From Alphaproteobacteria bacterium (lineage in GTDB: Bacteria; Pseudomonadota; Alphaproteobacteria; SHVV01): a stretch of 64,000 nt of DNA. The stretch spans positions 1,344,001 to 1,408,000 of the forward strand of contig OZ253470.1 in NCBI GenBank assembly GCA_965261735.1, in the 5' to 3' direction. Below the pieces are notes generated by a model that was not told the DNA's origin, ran no database searches, and saw only the letters and a list, made by a program, of their open reading frames with translations. The translations under genes and the position numbers were made by a program. This document shows, one piece after another, positions 7,781 through 63,063 of this stretch; position 1 is the first letter of the stretch, and every line of letters begins with the position of its first letter.

Positions 7781-7961
7781 GGGCGGGCCTCCTCGCCTCA
7801 TCCTAGCGGATTTCGCCGCGAGCCGGCCATGGCGTTGGCCTGGATCGAACTCGCAGTACGCGCGCGCCCGGTGCTTGTGCGGCCCAACCGGCTCCGATAC
7901 AGTCGCCGCGGCCGGCGCGGGCCGCGACGCCTGCCAGGCACATAACGAGGGAACACTTGAC

Positions 7962-8204
7962 ATGCCTGACGGACAGATCGCCCAAAAGGGGCCCTACCCC
8001 CAAGAAGTCGAAGCCGGCAAGTCGTACTATTGGTGTGCCTGCGGGCGCAGCAACAACCAGCCTTTCTGCGATGGCTCCCACAAGGAGGCGCCAGGTTTCG
8101 AGCCGATTCCGTATACGGCCGAGCGCGCCACCACCGTCTATTTCTGCGGCTGCAAGCACAGCGCCAACAAGCCGCTCTGCGACGGCACCCACGGCAAGCT
8201 TTAG
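7962..8204 (+). CDS. Double CDGSH [2Fe-2S] protein (MiNT-like)
   Basis: [17 protein letters not shown] and [17 protein letters not shown]. Confidence 0.92.
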
Positions 8205-8241
8205 AGACCCGGCGCGGCGCCCAGCCTCGGGGCGCAGCAAG

Positions 8242-8763
8242 ATGCGCGCCGCGCTGGCGGCGCCGGTGGTGGCGCTGGCCGCGACGCTGGCGGCCTGCGG
8301 CGGCGGTCCGGAGCCGATCAATCCGTGCCCGCGCGTCTCGATCCTGCGCGACGCAGAGAGCTTGACGCGGTTCGTGCCGGGGCCAGGGCGCGACCTTATC
8401 GACGTGCGCTTCGAGAGCGCCTTCGGCGCCATCAACGCGACCTGCCGCGTACGCGAGGACCGCGTCGACATGAGCCTCGACATCGAGGTCATCGCGAACC
8501 TGGGCCCGGCGGCGCAAGCGCGCGTGGCCGAGGTTCACTATTTCGTCGCCGTCATCGACCGCACCGGCGCGATCCTCGCCAAGGAGGCCTTCGCGGCGGC
8601 GATCGAGTTCCCCGGGAGCGCGAGCCGCGCCGGCTTGCGCGACGAGATCGTCCCGCGCATACCGCTCGCCGAGGGCGCCCGCGCCGCCGACTACGAGGTC
8701 CTGATCGGTTTCCAGCTCGACGCCGCCGAACTCGACTACAACCGCCGCAAGGCCGTGCGCTAA
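8242..8763 (+). CDS. Conserved alphaproteobacterial lipoprotein
   Basis: Lipobox LAAC after a hydrophobic leader; CPRVSIL and YFVAV...YEVLIGFQL pattern. Confidence 0.75.
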   Translation: MRAALAAPVVALAATLAACGGGPEPINPCPRVSILRDAESLTRFVPGPGRDLIDVRFESAFGAINATCRVREDRVDMSLDIEVIANLGPAAQARVAEVHYFVAVIDRTGAILAKEAFAAAIEFPGSASRAGLRDEIVPRIPLAEGARAADYEVLIGFQLDAAELDYNRRKAVR

Positions 8764-8811
8764 CACGACCATTCCCGATCAGCCCAGATCTCCCGGTCCG
8801 CGGGCCCCATG

Positions 8812-8944
8812 CTTCGACAGGCTCAGCATGAGGTCTTGATGGCTGGCAAATCGGCTCCCTCACCCTGATCTTGTCGAAGGATGAGCCCTTCGAAGGGTCG
8901 GCGGTGCCAAACCCCACCTCACCCTGAGCCTGTCGAAGGGTGAG
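8812..8944. repeat. Cluster of three REP-like palindromic repeats plus a short palindrome
   Basis: CTTCGACAGGCTCAGCATGAG (8812-8832, inverted), CTCACCCTGATCTTGTCGAAGGATGAG (8859-8885), CTCACCCTGAGCCTGTCGAAGGGTGAG (8918-8944) and palindrome CCCTTCGAAGGG (8886-8897). Confidence 0.8.
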
Positions 8945-9032
8945 CCCGCCGCATCCCTCGGCGAATGCGCGGCTGAATCGACACCCGCGCAACAAAATTA
9001 CGCTCGCGCCCCCTCCCTGCGCGTCCAAGTCA

Positions 9033-9101
9033 ATGCGTTATGATTTGACACGGCTCTAAATGTATCGTATAATGATACGTAACGCATCACGTCTGAGGGA
9101 G
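9033..9101 (+). promoter_or_regulatory. Perfect consensus sigma70 promoter with flanking inverted repeats and RBS
   Basis: TTGACA 9045-9050, 17-bp spacer, TATAAT 9068-9073; inverted repeat ATGCGTTA 9033-9040 / TAACGCAT 9080-9087; GTATC-N7-GATAC over the -10; GAGGGAG 9095-9101. Confidence 0.85.
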
Positions 9102-9108
9102 AGCGGCG

Positions 9109-9992
9109 ATGAGCTTCATGATCGAGGCCCGGAAGATCGAGAGAATTCACGTAAGCGGCGCGGACACCGCGAAGGTCAAGCCGGACTACATCGCCGAGCG
9201 CCTGGCGAAGCTCGCCGGCTGGGCCTACGGCTGGAAGTGGCACAAATACTTTCTCGTCGAGAAGGGCACTGGCTGCAGGGTGGAGGACGCCAAGGATAAG
9301 CCCGTGTGCAAGACCGGGCTGCGTCCTTCGTTCGGCTCGATGGATGTGGAGAAGGAATATTTCGATCAGCTGGAGGGCTCCGAGGGCCGCATCCCCTACA
9401 TGTACCTCGATTCTAAGGGCAACGTGACCGTGGGCCTGGGCCACCTGATCGAGAGCCCGGAGGCAGCGACCGGCCTTCGGTTCTATTGGGGGCGCACGGT
9501 GGTCGACTACGACTATCCGGCCTCGGCCGAGGACATAAGATGGGCGTTCGAGGCGGTCCACAAAAGACAAGACCTTGCAAGCGGCGGGCACACCAAGTTC
9601 GAACCTCTGACCGACATCAGGATGTCGCAGAACGACATCGGCGACCTGGCGGTGCTCGATATCTGGCGAAAGGTACAGGAGATAAAAAGGAAGACAGAGT
9701 TTTCCGGCTTCGACACCTTCCCGCCCGCGGCCAAGCTCGGGCTCTTGGACATCGCCTACAACTCGGGTGTCGCGGTATTTATCATCCGCCGGAAAAAGGC
9801 GGGTTCCCGGAACTCATCAAAGCCGTGGAAATGCGCGACTGGAAACGGGCGGCAAGGGAATCGGGTCGCGAGATCGTGTCCGAAGAGCGCAACATGCAGG
9901 TGCGGAAGTGGTTCGAGGAGGCGGCCAAGAAGGAGCCCCATTTCATCCACCCCACCTGCAGGGCGAAAGGCCTGCAACAGTGGTACTTCTAG
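9109..9992 (+). CDS. Lysozyme-like (T4L/GH24-type) muramidase with unknown N-terminal domain; 1-nt frameshift near 9772-9776
   Basis: SEGRIPYMYLDSKGNVTVGLGH carries E-x8-D-x5-T. LLDIAYNSG (frame of 9109) joins FPELIKAVEMRDWKRAARES...RN (frame of 9486) if one base is added, giving 294 aa. Confidence 0.75.
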
Positions 9993-10030
9993 CGGACAAA
10001 CCCGGAGGGCCCATCCGACGGGTGGCACTC

Positions 10031-10781
10031 CTAGCCGCGGCAGGCCTCTATTTCCGCTGTATTCAGGATTCGCAACACGGCATTTGGATACGCCCGCGAC
10101 AATAGGAGCTGCCGCGTCCCTCCCCATGTCCCTCCCGTCGCGCCCGCCACTACCCGCACCACCAGGTCGTCGAGCCCGTCGCCGTTGAAGTCGCCGCGCG
10201 CCATCGCCTCGACGCCAACGCTCATTCCCGGCGACTCGAACTCCATTTCATTTGGGCCAGCAATCTTGATTTTGCTCACCTCAGAAGCCTGGGCGAGCGG
10301 GATACCCTTTTCGTTGGCCTCGCATTGCCATCTCACCCCGCTGGTAAAGGGATGCAGATCGACCATGGCCGGCAGGTAGTTGATCGCGTCGGCGTCGAGC
10401 GCGAACTCCCGAACGTGGCTCTTTCGCGCCGGTTTCGCGTGCCGCAGCAATTCGATGATGCGGCACGTTATCTCGTTATACTATAGGGCCTTAAAGTTTG
10501 GGTTTATGCGCGCTTCGTAGCCCTGCGCCGCCCAATGCTTGAGCGAGTTGCAGTTGTCGACATGCGCGCTCTTCCGCTCCCCCCCCCTTGCCCTTGTAGA
10601 CGGTGAAGTCGAGCGTCCGCCGCGCAAGCCTCTCGTCGATGTCACCGAGGCTTTCAAGCTCCAGCGCCGGAGACCACCACACCGGGTAGGCTTCTTCCTC
10701 GGCCATCGAGTGCGATGCCGCGAGCGCCGCTGTCATTGCGGCCGCGAGCAGCCGTGCCGATCGCCTCGCCCCACGCCTCAT
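10031..10781 (-). pseudogene. Secreted 'YPVWW' family protein, disrupted by a G9 tract (10579-10587) and an in-frame TAG (10481-10483)
   Basis: Signal peptide, then YPVWWSP. G8 restores the frame through DNCNSLKHWAAQGY...*...CRIIELLRHAKPARKSHVREF to a C-terminal GDFNGDGLDD loop; colinear with 62626-63050. Confidence 0.7.
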
Positions 10782-10893
10782 GAAGACATCCTACGGCAGT
10801 CCTCATCCACGATGCATCCACATTCGCAACCTGTGGCTGCGGGGCCGCCCCGGGGGTGCGCCGCGGCGTACGCGTAGTGTATAGTCGCCGGCC

Positions 10894-12471
10894 ATGTCCG
10901 GTTCGCGCCCACGCCCGCTGGTGCTCTGCGTCCTCGATGGCTGGGGCCATCGCCGCGAGACCGACCACAACGCGATAGCACTGGCGCAGACGCCCCACTA
11001 CGACGGTTTCCTGAGCCATTGCCCGCACAGCCTGCTCGCCGCCTCGGCCGCCGACGTCGGCTTGGCGGCGGGGCAGATGGGCAACTCCGAGGTCGGCCAC
11101 ATGAACCTCGGTGCGGGCCGCGTGGTGGTCCAGGACCTACCGCGCGTGGACGCCGCGATCGCCGACCGCAGCCTGTTCGCGGCGCCGGCTTTCGCGCGCC
11201 TCGCCGAGCACCTTGGCCGCGGCGGCACCTGCCACCTCATGGGCCTGCTCTCGCCCGGCGGCGTGCACGCCCACCAGGCGCATTTGGCCGCGCTCGCCCG
11301 CGCACTGACTGAGCGCGGAGTCCGCGTCGCGCTGCACGCCTTCCTCGACGGCCGCGACACGCCGCCCCGGAGCGCGCGCGACCACCTCGCGCGCTACTTG
11401 GCCGATACCGCCGACCTCGAGGACCATGCGGTGGCGACCCTGTGTGGGCGCTACTACGCGATGGACCGTGACAAGCGCTGGCCGCGCGTGGCCGAGGCGT
11501 ACGGCGCCATCATCGACGCCGCGGGCGCGCACGCCGCCGATCCGCTCGCCGCCATCGAGGCCGCCTACGCGGTCGACCTCGGCGATGAGTTCGTGGTGCC
11601 GACCGCGATCGGCGACTACACCGGGATGCGTGACGGTGACGGGCTGCTGATGGCCAACTTCCGCTCCGACCGGGCGCGCGAGATTCTCGCAGCCCTTGTC
11701 GAGCCCGATTTCGACGGCTTCGTCCGACCGCGCACGGTCTCGCTCATCGCCGCCGGCATGGTCGAATATTCGGCCGCGCTCAATGCTCACATGCCAGCGC
11801 TGCTGCCCGCCCTCGACGTCGAGGCGACCCTCGGCGAGCTCATCGCGCGGGCCGGCTTGAGCCAGCTGCGCATCGCCGAAACCGAGAAGTACGCGCACGT
11901 CACCTTCTTCTTCAGCGGCGGCCGCGAGGCGCCGTTCCCGGCCGAGGAGCGCATTCTCGTGCCCTCGCCCAAGGTCGCCACCTACGACCTCAAGCCGGAG
12001 ATGTCGGCCGTCGAAGTAACCGACCGGCTGGTCGCGGCGATCGACGAGGGGCGCTTCGATTTCATCCTCGTCAACTACGCCAACACGGACATGGTCGGCC
12101 ACACCGGCATCCTGCCCGCGGCGGTGCGCGCGGTCGAAGCGGTCGACCCTTGCCTCGGCCGGCTCGCTGACGCGGTGCGCCGCGCGGGTGGCGCCCTGAT
12201 CGTCACCGCCGACCATGGTAACGCCGAGCGCATGCACGACCCCGGCGCCGGCCAGCCGCACACCCAGCACACCACGGAACTCGTCCCGCTGATCCTCGCC
12301 GTGCCGCCGCGCCAGGGGCTGGCGCTACGCGACGGCCGGCTCGCCGACGTCGCCCCCACGGCGCTCGCGCTCCTCGGGCTCGCACAGCCCGCCGCCATGG
12401 CGGGCCGGTCCCTGCTCGTGGCGGCGCGACAACGCAACGGCATCGGCGCCACGAGCAGCGCCAATGTTTGA
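10894..12471 (+). CDS. gpmI: 2,3-bisphosphoglycerate-independent phosphoglycerate mutase
   Basis: LDGWG, GQMGNSEVGH, GRYYAMDRD, AETEKYAHVTFF, TADHGNAE. Confidence 0.96.
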   Translation: MSGSRPRPLVLCVLDGWGHRRETDHNAIALAQTPHYDGFLSHCPHSLLAASAADVGLAAGQMGNSEVGHMNLGAGRVVVQDLPRVDAAIADRSLFAAPAFARLAEHLGRGGTCHLMGLLSPGGVHAHQAHLAALARALTERGVRVALHAFLDGRDTPPRSARDHLARYLADTADLEDHAVATLCGRYYAMDRDKRWPRVAEAYGAIIDAAGAHAADPLAAIEAAYAVDLGDEFVVPTAIGDYTGMRDGDGLLMANFRSDRAREILAALVEPDFDGFVRPRTVSLIAAGMVEYSAALNAHMPALLPALDVEATLGELIARAGLSQLRIAETEKYAHVTFFFSGGREAPFPAEERILVPSPKVATYDLKPEMSAVEVTDRLVAAIDEGRFDFILVNYANTDMVGHTGILPAAVRAVEAVDPCLGRLADAVRRAGGALIVTADHGNAERMHDPGAGQPHTQHTTELVPLILAVPPRQGLALRDGRLADVAPTALALLGLAQPAAMAGRSLLVAARQRNGIGATSSANV

Positions 12472-62625: not shown

Positions 62626-63063
62626 ATGGCGCGCACTCGAATCATAGCCGTTCTAGCCTGGGCGCTCTGCGTATGCGCCGGCGTCCTGTCCGCCTCGGCT
62701 GCCGCCGAGCGCTACCCGGTGTGGTGGGCGCCGGAGATCGGGATTGCGAGCCTCGACGAGATCGACGCGCTGCTGGCGAAGCCGTTACCCGAGGAGTTCC
62801 GCCACAGGCTCTACAAGTTCGACTATGGCCGCGGCAAGTGGGAGTCGCCCATCGTCGACCGGCAGCCGATCGAGGACTGCGTATCGCTATTCGAATGGCT
62901 TGCGGCCGGCTACAAGTGGGGCGCCGAGGACCGCGACTATGATGGTTATCACAGGGCGTATCCCTACTGCTACACGCTGCGCGCGATAGACCGGGCCAAG
63001 CCGGCGAAAGAAAGCTACGTGCGCAACTTCGTCATGGACGCGAATGCCCTAGCAGGCTGCTGA
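62626..63063 (+). pseudogene. Secreted 'YPVWW' family protein truncated by IS5 at 63049-63052
   Basis: Signal peptide, YPVWWAP, CVSLFEWLAAGY, AKPAKESYVRNFVMDANAL; the last residues and the stop come from the IS end. Confidence 0.75.

Follow-up and report, generated by a model that had tools for sequence, protein, structure and literature searches.

The DNA analysed, hereafter the window, is a stretch of 64,000 nucleotides from an Alphaproteobacteria bacterium of the SHVV01 lineage (genome G000; assembly GCA_965261735.1, contig OZ253470.1, positions 1,344,001 to 1,408,000) and contains a two-gene cassette in which gene 1, predicted to encode a muramidase-like protein of glycoside hydrolase family 24 (GH24), converges on gene 2, predicted to encode an exported protein with a YPVWW motif. 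As an earlier note on this DNA had described, the cassette lies between a gene for a lipoprotein-like protein (7957-8763, with the lipobox-like motif LAAC) and gpmI (10894-12471), the product of the latter matching the Pfam families Metalloenzyme and iPGM_N. The interval 8964-10781 forms an islet of low GC content, 61.1% versus 70-71% in the flanks. The earlier note let the cassette begin at 8812; the two genes it described are real, whereas 8812-8960 consists of non-coding repeats and both genes are pseudogenes. The features of the locus are collected in Table 1.

Table 1. Features of the cassette locus and of a further gene 2 fragment, in positions of the window
Feature	Position	Strand	Remarks
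REP/MITE-like repeat pair (CTCACCCTGA..TGTCGAAGG.TGAGCC)	8812..8960	.	upstream edge of the cassette; non-coding
promoter-like site TTGACA-N17-TATAAT	9045..9073	+	12/12 match to the sigma-70 consensus; overlapped by the palindrome GTATC-N7-GATAC (together 9045-9078)
gene 1 pseudogene, whole	9109-9992	+	1-nt deletion near 9785
gene 1 pseudogene, 5' part, frame 1	9109..9785	+	N-terminal domain (~aa 1-80) and most of the GH24 domain, with E92/D101/T107
gene 1 pseudogene, 3' part, frame 3	9786..9992	+	TAG stop at 9990-9992; reached only via a -1 shift
gene 2 pseudogene	10031..10781	-	signal peptide, YPVWW, conserved Cys, RGDFNGDGLDD motif resembling a Ca loop; two lesions
in-frame TAG in gene 2	10481..10483	-	CAG (Gln) in run X7 and in P0008 (other assembly)
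C9 homopolymer (G9 on the coding strand)	10579..10587	-	frameshifts gene 2; +2 change, intact paralogues implying a run of 7
second fragment of the gene 2 family, type II	62626..63063	+	145 aa, cut short, then IS1595 transposase pieces; gene 2 match at G000 1406662-1407051

The lesions were located by comparison with intact paralogues from the same genome. Window gene 1 is 70% identical to the intact 296-residue paralogue P0002 (3315632-3316519), which belongs to an intact pair at 3.3148-3.3165 Mb, and the second segment of window gene 1 was aligned by tblastn with residues 206-295. Window gene 2 is 78% identical to intact P0009 and 66% identical to intact P0010. Alignment by blastn of the window with the intact paralogous cassette extended over 1929 nt with 72% identity, included the repeats and the promoter, and showed window gene 1 to be one nucleotide short (ATCAT-CCGCC) and the G-run of window gene 2 to be longer. 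Contigs from four public sequencing runs of four studies (X1, X4, X5 and X7) were then compared with the window over 8800-10800. At the gene 1 site no insertion or deletion relative to the window was found in the contigs of any of the four runs. The C-run was 9 long in the window, X1 and X7 and 8 long in X4 and X5, and P0008 from another assembly reads one extra Gly there; every observed length is out of frame relative to the paralogues. In X7 position 10483 is G, by which the TAG becomes CAG, and further 1-nt deletions are present at 10007 and 10736. The frameshifted tail recurs unchanged in P0001, a protein of another assembly with 99% identity; P0004, 73% identical, has a similar out-of-frame tail, a likeness read from the protein tails only, and its neighbour P0012 is truncated. 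The contigs of the four runs rule out sequencing or assembly error as the source of the frameshifts. The window locus is a decaying pseudogene pair, the defunct copy of a mobile, polymorphic two-gene cassette. Since both genes are broken the window copy cannot work today; it is a fossil, and the objects of interest are the intact paralogues, in particular the pair at 3.315 Mb, and the gene 2 family.

Family searches detected little in the window itself. The five window open reading frame (ORF) pieces gave nothing significant in Pfam, PHROGs or NCBIfam, the gene 1 fragment matched no Pfam family at E<=1, and none of the PADLOC families was matched by eight cassette proteins. The deduced sequence of window gene 1 contains the motif EGRIPYMYLDSKGNVT, in which E92 (nt 9382-9384), D101 (9409) and T107 (9427) align residue for residue with E11, D20 and T26 of T4 lysozyme (T4L), bearing out the E-x8-D-x5-T spacing that the earlier note had read from the window copy. 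Glu, Asp and Thr are invariant in 8 of 8 relatives, the type II members carrying a four-residue insert after the Glu. Pfam PF00959 matched six of the eight gene 1 relatives with a best E of 1.1e-7 and is present in precomputed data for P0166; the match of P0002 (E 0.034, 14.9 bits) falls below the gathering cut-off of 22.3. No hydrophobic stretch was found at the N-terminus of gene 1, in agreement with the earlier statement that a signal peptide is lacking.

The fold was evaluated on the intact paralogue. The AF2 model of P0002, built from 8 sequences, had a predicted local distance difference test score (pLDDT) of 84.4 and a predicted template modelling score (pTM) of 0.79. Foldseek returned 110 PDB matches at E<=0.001, and the 50 listed were T4L, T4L fusions or pesticin-T4L hybrids. 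Structural alignment with VIA-align gave Z 14.1 for a T4L fusion (root-mean-square deviation 2.9, 146 residues aligned), Z 13.4 for T4L and Z 11.7 for P22 lysozyme; pesticin (4epf) was aligned with Z 11.9 over 170 residues spanning 77-279. Among the other structural matches were SpmX (Z 10.2) and Brucella SagA (Z 6.9), and a viral fold library gave generic lysozyme matches only, baseplate spike proteins among them. Residues 78-277 of P0002 thus have the two-lobed fold of T4L, while residues 1-77 form two helices and a small sheet that are conserved across the gene 1 family. The modelling indicates that gene 1 is a muramidase-like protein of the T4L/pesticin fold, as had been proposed.

The product of gene 2 begins with a Sec-type leader followed by YPVWW and contains GDFNGDG and invariant Cys residues, all as previously noted. 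The leader and the invariant Cys place it in the periplasm, where peptidoglycan is located. A model of P0010 from 91 sequences had a pLDDT of 92.2 and a pTM of 0.86 and was of the alpha/beta type. No PDB match to this fold was obtained with Foldseek at E<=0.001, and the best VIA-align score, Z 4.1, was tied with unrelated chains. A profile search against representatives of 50%-identity clusters gave 8394 matches at E<=0.001, many through the loop alone, and 117 at E<=1e-30, many of them full-length with 250-300 residues and some giant FG-GAP repeat proteins. The Atlas clusters matched by gene 2 are unnamed and mostly from Pseudomonadota, and no Pfam model covers the family. Only the DxNxDGxxD loop resembles the calcium sites of integrin FG-GAP repeats: profile matches in the PDB are limited to positions 194-213, and PF01839 matches 37 of 91 members in one stretch each. 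The identification of gene 2 as an FG-GAP beta-propeller was rejected on the grounds that the loop is single and that no propeller occurs among the structure matches. Weak matches to NCBIfam XAC2610_fam in 2 of the 91 relatives (best E 0.0015, far below the cut-off) probably reflect the Ca-loop motif only. In-frame tandem fusions of two to four gene 2 copies, 500-786 residues long, also occur (P0014-P0016, P0017, P0020, P0022 and P0023), and a tandem-fusion ORF of 552 residues faces gene 1 in genome G105 (L071, 2681-4336).

The intact paralogues P0002 and mature P0010 were co-folded. The interface score ipSAE was 0.83, 0.87 and 0.88, compared with 0.00 in each of three controls; the partner had a pLDDT of at least 89 and at least 84% of the contacts were common between runs. 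The calibration puts 116 of 157 solved complexes at or above the mark, against 2 of 215 mismatched pairs, figures that apply only roughly here, as own alignments were used. The interface on P0002 comprises residues 92-95 and 103-105, including the catalytic E94 and D103, and that on P0010 comprises segments 87-100, 140-149 and 209-221. These segments of gene 2 are poorly conserved in the family, the scaffold being conserved. The predicted interface over the active site, which the earlier note had asked for as a check on the pair, supports but does not prove a role of gene 2 as an inhibitor capping the active site of gene 1; that gene 2 binds and inhibits gene 1 is considered very likely.

The muramidase had been described as an orphan, which is wrong. 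Matches to gene 1 in the genome number 12, representing seven loci and three short C-terminal remnants, and matches of gene 2 to P0009 or P0010 number 21. At five of the gene 1 loci (the window and 3.315, 0.977, 1.412 and 2.916 Mb) a convergent gene 2 lies 3' end to 3' end within ~60 nt, and at 0.78 Mb an insertion sequence (IS) of the IS5 family separates the two genes; gene 2 is missing from the gene 1 copy at 4.566 Mb. A convergent gene 2 with a Sec leader accompanies six of seven loci. Each of the three gene 1 remnants either adjoins a gene 2 directly or is separated from it by an IS. Three successive gene 2 copies occur at 3.311-3.3165 Mb, the first two facing a gene 1 remnant of 20-30 residues, in one case across IS630, and a cluster with gene 2 only is located at 1.696-1.702 Mb. 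The orphan gene 2 copies beside 3' remnants of gene 1 fit immunity that was kept after loss of the toxin. The paralogues are mutually only 30-35% identical. Pfam searches of 95 neighbouring ORFs, 5 from the window and 90 from around the paralogous cassettes, revealed housekeeping genes and transposases only; no phage, holin, spanin, type VI secretion system (T6SS) or type IV secretion system (T4SS) family was among them, which extends to the ORFs scanned around the paralogous cassettes what had been reported for the window. A holin-endolysin lysis cassette was rejected on the basis of the same 95 ORFs.

Occurrence of the cassette elsewhere is patchy. Matches to the gene 1 profile came from 3 of 41 relatives and, at E<=1e-5, from 33 of the 401 genomes sampled from the class; for gene 2, at E<=1e-12, the number was 12 of these 401. 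In G002, from another genus of the same family, an intact gene 1 of 284 residues is accompanied by IS fragments, four whole or partial gene 2 copies on the opposite strand, and gpmI, an arrangement at the same chromosomal site upstream of gpmI as in the window. By hmmsearch over the fetched loci, gene 2 adjoined gene 1 in 4 of 30; pairing was also found in G105 (two loci and a remnant), G182 and G307, bringing to four the other genomes with adjacent homologues, whereas the earlier note had named a lack of such adjacency elsewhere as grounds for refuting the pair. Of 53 metagenome loci five were paired, two convergently, one divergently and two co-directionally. Scanning of genome contigs with the gene 2 profile was dominated by FG-GAP repeat proteins, and a full relative of gene 2 was present in one of eight loci (L031). 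Distant homologues of gene 2 were also observed: at loci L133, L135 and L138, from three genomes of family f85, they form tandem pairs, with a neighbouring ORF in L133 and L138 that resembles a TonB-dependent receptor by eye, and at L134, L136, L137 and L139, from four genomes, they are single copies, with a panC-like gene as neighbour in three or more of the four.

Two genomes carry gene 1 within a head-tail cluster resembling that of a gene transfer agent (GTA) or a prophage. In G182 (L069, C9, 10029-13725) the cassette, whose two genes are separated by a secreted ORF of 613 residues, interrupts a cluster with terminase, portal, protease and capsid genes at the junction of the genes for tail completion (PF11367) and the tail tube (PF06199). 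Third-position GC was 0.71 in the inserts and 0.84-0.90 in the cluster, as acquired cargo would show. In G257 (L070, C100, 3468-6541) the tail-tube gene precedes gene 1, and two secreted paralogues from another family lie in tandem downstream of gene 1. The neighbours in both genomes are head-tail genes and not lysis genes. GH24 genes of the same clade in G180 and G094 are found together with genes for small secreted proteins of unrelated type, as convergent pairs or as tandem arrays. In G180 (L045, C2, 40-3438) the 3' end of each arrayed GH24 gene is overlapped by a convergent gene for a secreted protein of ~160 residues, and six GH24 copies occur within 53 kb; in G094 (L047, C1, 397-3336) a protein of 564 residues with a C-terminal GH24 domain faces two secreted paralogues.

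Carrier genomes were searched for markers of delivery. TssC (PF05943) was found in none of 11 carrier genomes that were 70-100% complete, a control genome responding, and VirB4 (PF03135) in none of six; on these results delivery by a T6SS and by a T4SS, respectively, was rejected. G000, G002, G105 and G307, four of the six genomes carrying the pair, gave no match to the tail-tube marker PF06199, nor did G000 to PF13550. When the GTA-like proteins of G182 were compared with G000 by tblastn, only relatives of the terminase were detected. One weak capsid match at 2.23 Mb of G000 points to a prophage unrelated to the cassettes.

Overall, the synteny of the two genes and the predicted interface indicate that the pair is probably a polymorphic GH24 toxin/periplasmic-immunity cassette that serves in warfare between bacteria. 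The toxicity, protection and delivery that we infer would proceed as follows. Gene 1 would be a GH24 muramidase of ~296 residues made in the cytoplasm, with a conserved N-terminal domain of ~80 residues and no signal peptide, and gene 2, converging on gene 1 with a gap of a few tens of bases, would provide a Sec-exported periplasmic protein of ~255 residues with a fold unlike any solved. Producer cells would release the muramidase, which would reach the periplasm of competitors and cut peptidoglycan; a possible route is cell lysis followed by receptor-mediated import via the N-terminal domain, as for pesticin. Carriers of the cognate gene 2 would be protected by a protein that spans the catalytic cleft of the muramidase and blocks its activity. 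Cassettes would arrive as low-GC islets, diversify as pairs and then decay, the toxin genes being lost first so as to leave orphan immunity genes beside 3' toxin remnants. A bolder suggestion, offered tentatively, is that of an undescribed antibacterial weapon family needing neither a T6SS nor a T4SS, in which the N-terminal domain would specify a new route of exit and entry, release could be coupled to GTA- or phage-like lysis in some lineages, and the gene 2 proteins would be widespread periplasmic inhibitors, of unsolved fold, of a polymorphic GH24 muramidase toxin. No published description of the pair was found in open-access full text.

Were the cassette to act as a toxin/immunity pair, a large unannotated family with a fold unmatched in the PDB would gain a function as proteinaceous inhibitors of T4-type lysozymes, and muramidase toxins of the pesticin kind would turn out to exist as polymorphic, mobile genes in multiple copies in bacteria without the customary systems for contact-dependent delivery. 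It would then have to be asked how such a protein exits one cell and crosses the outer membrane of another. The orphan immunity arrays beside toxin remnants would constitute a genomic record of toxin/immunity turnover.

Several results weigh against a toxin/immunity cassette. The window copy is broken, such that no functional test is possible on the window pair itself. The gene 1 profile matched in only 6 of the 12 genomes with gene 2, adjacency being found in only four of those, and gene 2 was not present in 48 of the 53 metagenome GH24 loci within the retrieved DNA. Distant homologues of gene 2 occur without gene 1 at seemingly conserved chromosomal places, and the gene 2 family may have another role. 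The location of gene 1 inside the head-tail clusters of G182 and G257 also fits a phage-related lysin. The co-folding score is the confidence of the model in its own prediction, obtained with own alignments having 8 rows for the gene 1 chain, and that chain had a pLDDT of only 65-70 within the complex. Export or uptake through the N-terminal region, as advanced in the earlier note, was not borne out: the ~80 residues are conserved and have neither a Pfam match nor a usable Atlas match, and neither a TonB box nor a lysis gene nor any machinery for export or import was identified.

The position of the cassette in G182 between the PF11367 and PF06199 genes, and of gene 1 after the tail-tube gene in G257, could be explained if gene 1 were a virion or lysis muramidase linked to phages or GTAs and gene 2 a periplasmic anti-lysin of the superinfection-exclusion type, as Spackle is versus gp5. 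The fold is that of phage lysozymes, baseplate spike proteins are among the viral matches, and the published report on Spackle (PMC7677548) describes it as inhibiting a GH24 domain in the periplasm. This explanation is nevertheless unlikely considering that no phage gene is present among the 95 ORFs beside the cassettes of G000, that the head-tail markers PF06199 (G000, G002, G105 and G307) and PF13550 (G000) were not found, that the G182 inserts are lower in third-position GC than the cluster that holds them, that divergent pairs in multiple copies and orphan arrays are unexpected for a structural lysin, and that no Spackle match was obtained in the fold searches. A further explanation is that the module is directed at the cell that makes it, with some gene 1 protein reaching the periplasm of its own producer, gene 2 mainly preventing suicide and the pair persisting as a selfish, addiction-like element rather than a weapon. 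The cassettes do behave as mobile islets, and a precedent is XAC2610, which guards against cis-intoxication by XAC2609 independently of the secretion system (PMC10933484). The XAC2610_fam matches in the gene 2 family are far below any cut-off, however. Orphan gene 2 copies kept after loss of the toxin argue for protection from a toxin that comes from outside, and loss of the antidote is counter-selected in addiction, yet both window genes decay together; self-direction is therefore regarded as improbable.

A housekeeping enzyme for remodelling of the cell wall, with gene 2 as its dedicated periplasmic regulator and no part in conflict between cells, would be compatible with the non-lytic roles of GH24 domains, SpmX and Brucella SagA being among the structural matches, and with the seemingly conserved positions of the distant gene 2 homologues. 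Gene 1 cannot reach its substrate by the normal route because it has no signal peptide, however, and the family is patchy (3 of 41 relatives), located in low-GC islets beside IS elements, frequently reduced to pseudogenes and divergent between paralogues (30-35% identity), results which make a housekeeping role quite improbable. Lastly, window gene 1 could be alive through a programmed -1 ribosomal frameshift near CGG AAA AAG. In its favour, the reading past the shift stays open as far as the shared stop codon, with ~70% identity to the paralogue; the shift is fixed across the four populations and seemingly common to P0004; and 8-14 nt further downstream there is an A AAG motif. Against this, the base that is missing maps by alignment to ATCAT-CC, which precedes the A-run, and neither the intact paralogue nor any other relative requires a shift. 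In these populations gene 2 has several different lesions, and both genes are further truncated on the contig of P0004, a pattern of decay because of which programmed frameshifting is very improbable.

The proposed toxin/immunity cassette was compared with known systems, of which pesticin of Yersinia pestis affords the nearest analogy for delivery. The published account (PMC3390615) describes Pim, an immunity protein of the periplasm whose gene adjoins that of the toxin, and a model of release followed by import through the N-terminal domain. The cassette resembles the pesticin/Pim pair described there in the T4L fold of the C-terminal domain, the lack of a signal peptide, the extra N-terminal part and the adjacent gene for a putative periplasmic immunity protein. 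It differs in that the N-terminal part has ~80 residues, compared with ~165 in pesticin, without a recognised TonB box or receptor domain, that the partner has ~255 residues and an unmatched fold, that the cassettes are chromosomal and in multiple copies, and that the host group is another one. The likeness to pesticin is an analogy in toxin fold and gene arrangement only. In the muramidase pairs of T6SSs (Tse3-Tsi3 and the pesticin-like VgrG3cp and TssI2) the immunity protein occludes the active site and orphan immunity is common, according to the reports (PMC3792639, PMC9927483, PMC9620997). What the cassette is predicted to share with them is a toxin that acts on peptidoglycan as a glycoside hydrolase and an immunity protein in the periplasm that covers its active site; in contrast, the genes of the cassette are convergent and not co-directional, and it has no VgrG, PAAR or other T6SS domain, in line with the result for TssC (0 of 11 carriers). 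Spackle, which acts on the lysozyme domain of T4 gp5, is a periplasmic protein inhibitor of GH24 (PMC7677548), the role predicted for gene 2; unlike gene 2 it is an early phage protein in superinfection exclusion and has no fold match here, where enzyme and putative inhibitor are co-encoded on chromosomal islets.

The lysozyme fold of XAC2609 from the Xanthomonas T4SS (X-T4SS) differs from GH24. The effector fold of the cassette is GH24, VirB4 was found in 0 of 6 carriers, and the match to the XAC2610 family is far below significance. What XAC2609 and XAC2610 have in common with the cassette, as given in the report already cited (PMC10933484), is a lysozyme-like effector without a signal peptide and a periplasmic immunity protein. 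Telocin B of the telomere phages of Klebsiella is, according to its description (PMC12042878), a peptidoglycan-degrading bacteriocin of the pesticin kind whose immunity gene accompanies it as cargo of a phage-like element, and it parallels the cassettes within the GTA-like clusters of G182 and G257. Host, carrier element and immunity family are different, and most of the cassettes described here are free-standing chromosomal islets.

The region upstream of window gene 1 has further features that are common to the intact paralogue. The pair of repeats, which resembles repetitive extragenic palindromes (REP) or miniature inverted-repeat transposable elements (MITE), is conserved upstream of both type I cassettes according to blastn. 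The segment 8800-8950 is multi-copy: in each of the four runs depth is raised 5-15 fold there, and contigs join or end loosely at dozens of points. The site at 9045-9073 was the only promoter-like one in 8700-11000, shuffled sequence giving a mean of 0.6, and a perfect sigma-70 consensus stands out in a genome of 70% GC. With one mismatch, the promoter and palindrome motif is also found upstream of the intact paralogue (G000 3316548). The palindrome may be an operator. Genome-wide the motif is restricted to these two type I cassettes and is therefore uninformative on a regulon.

The type II fragment near the end of the window is followed, ~3.5 kb past that end, by a complete type II cassette (G000 1411535-1413420) in which a gene 2 of 286 residues faces a gene 1 of 326 residues. 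An ORF of 152 residues (1413453-1413911, minus strand; L019 9456-9911) lies 33 nt upstream of this gene 1 on the same strand and gave no match in Pfam or PADLOC; its third-position GC of 0.95 is native-like. Gene 1 of the type II cassette has a duplicate copy at 2.916 Mb.

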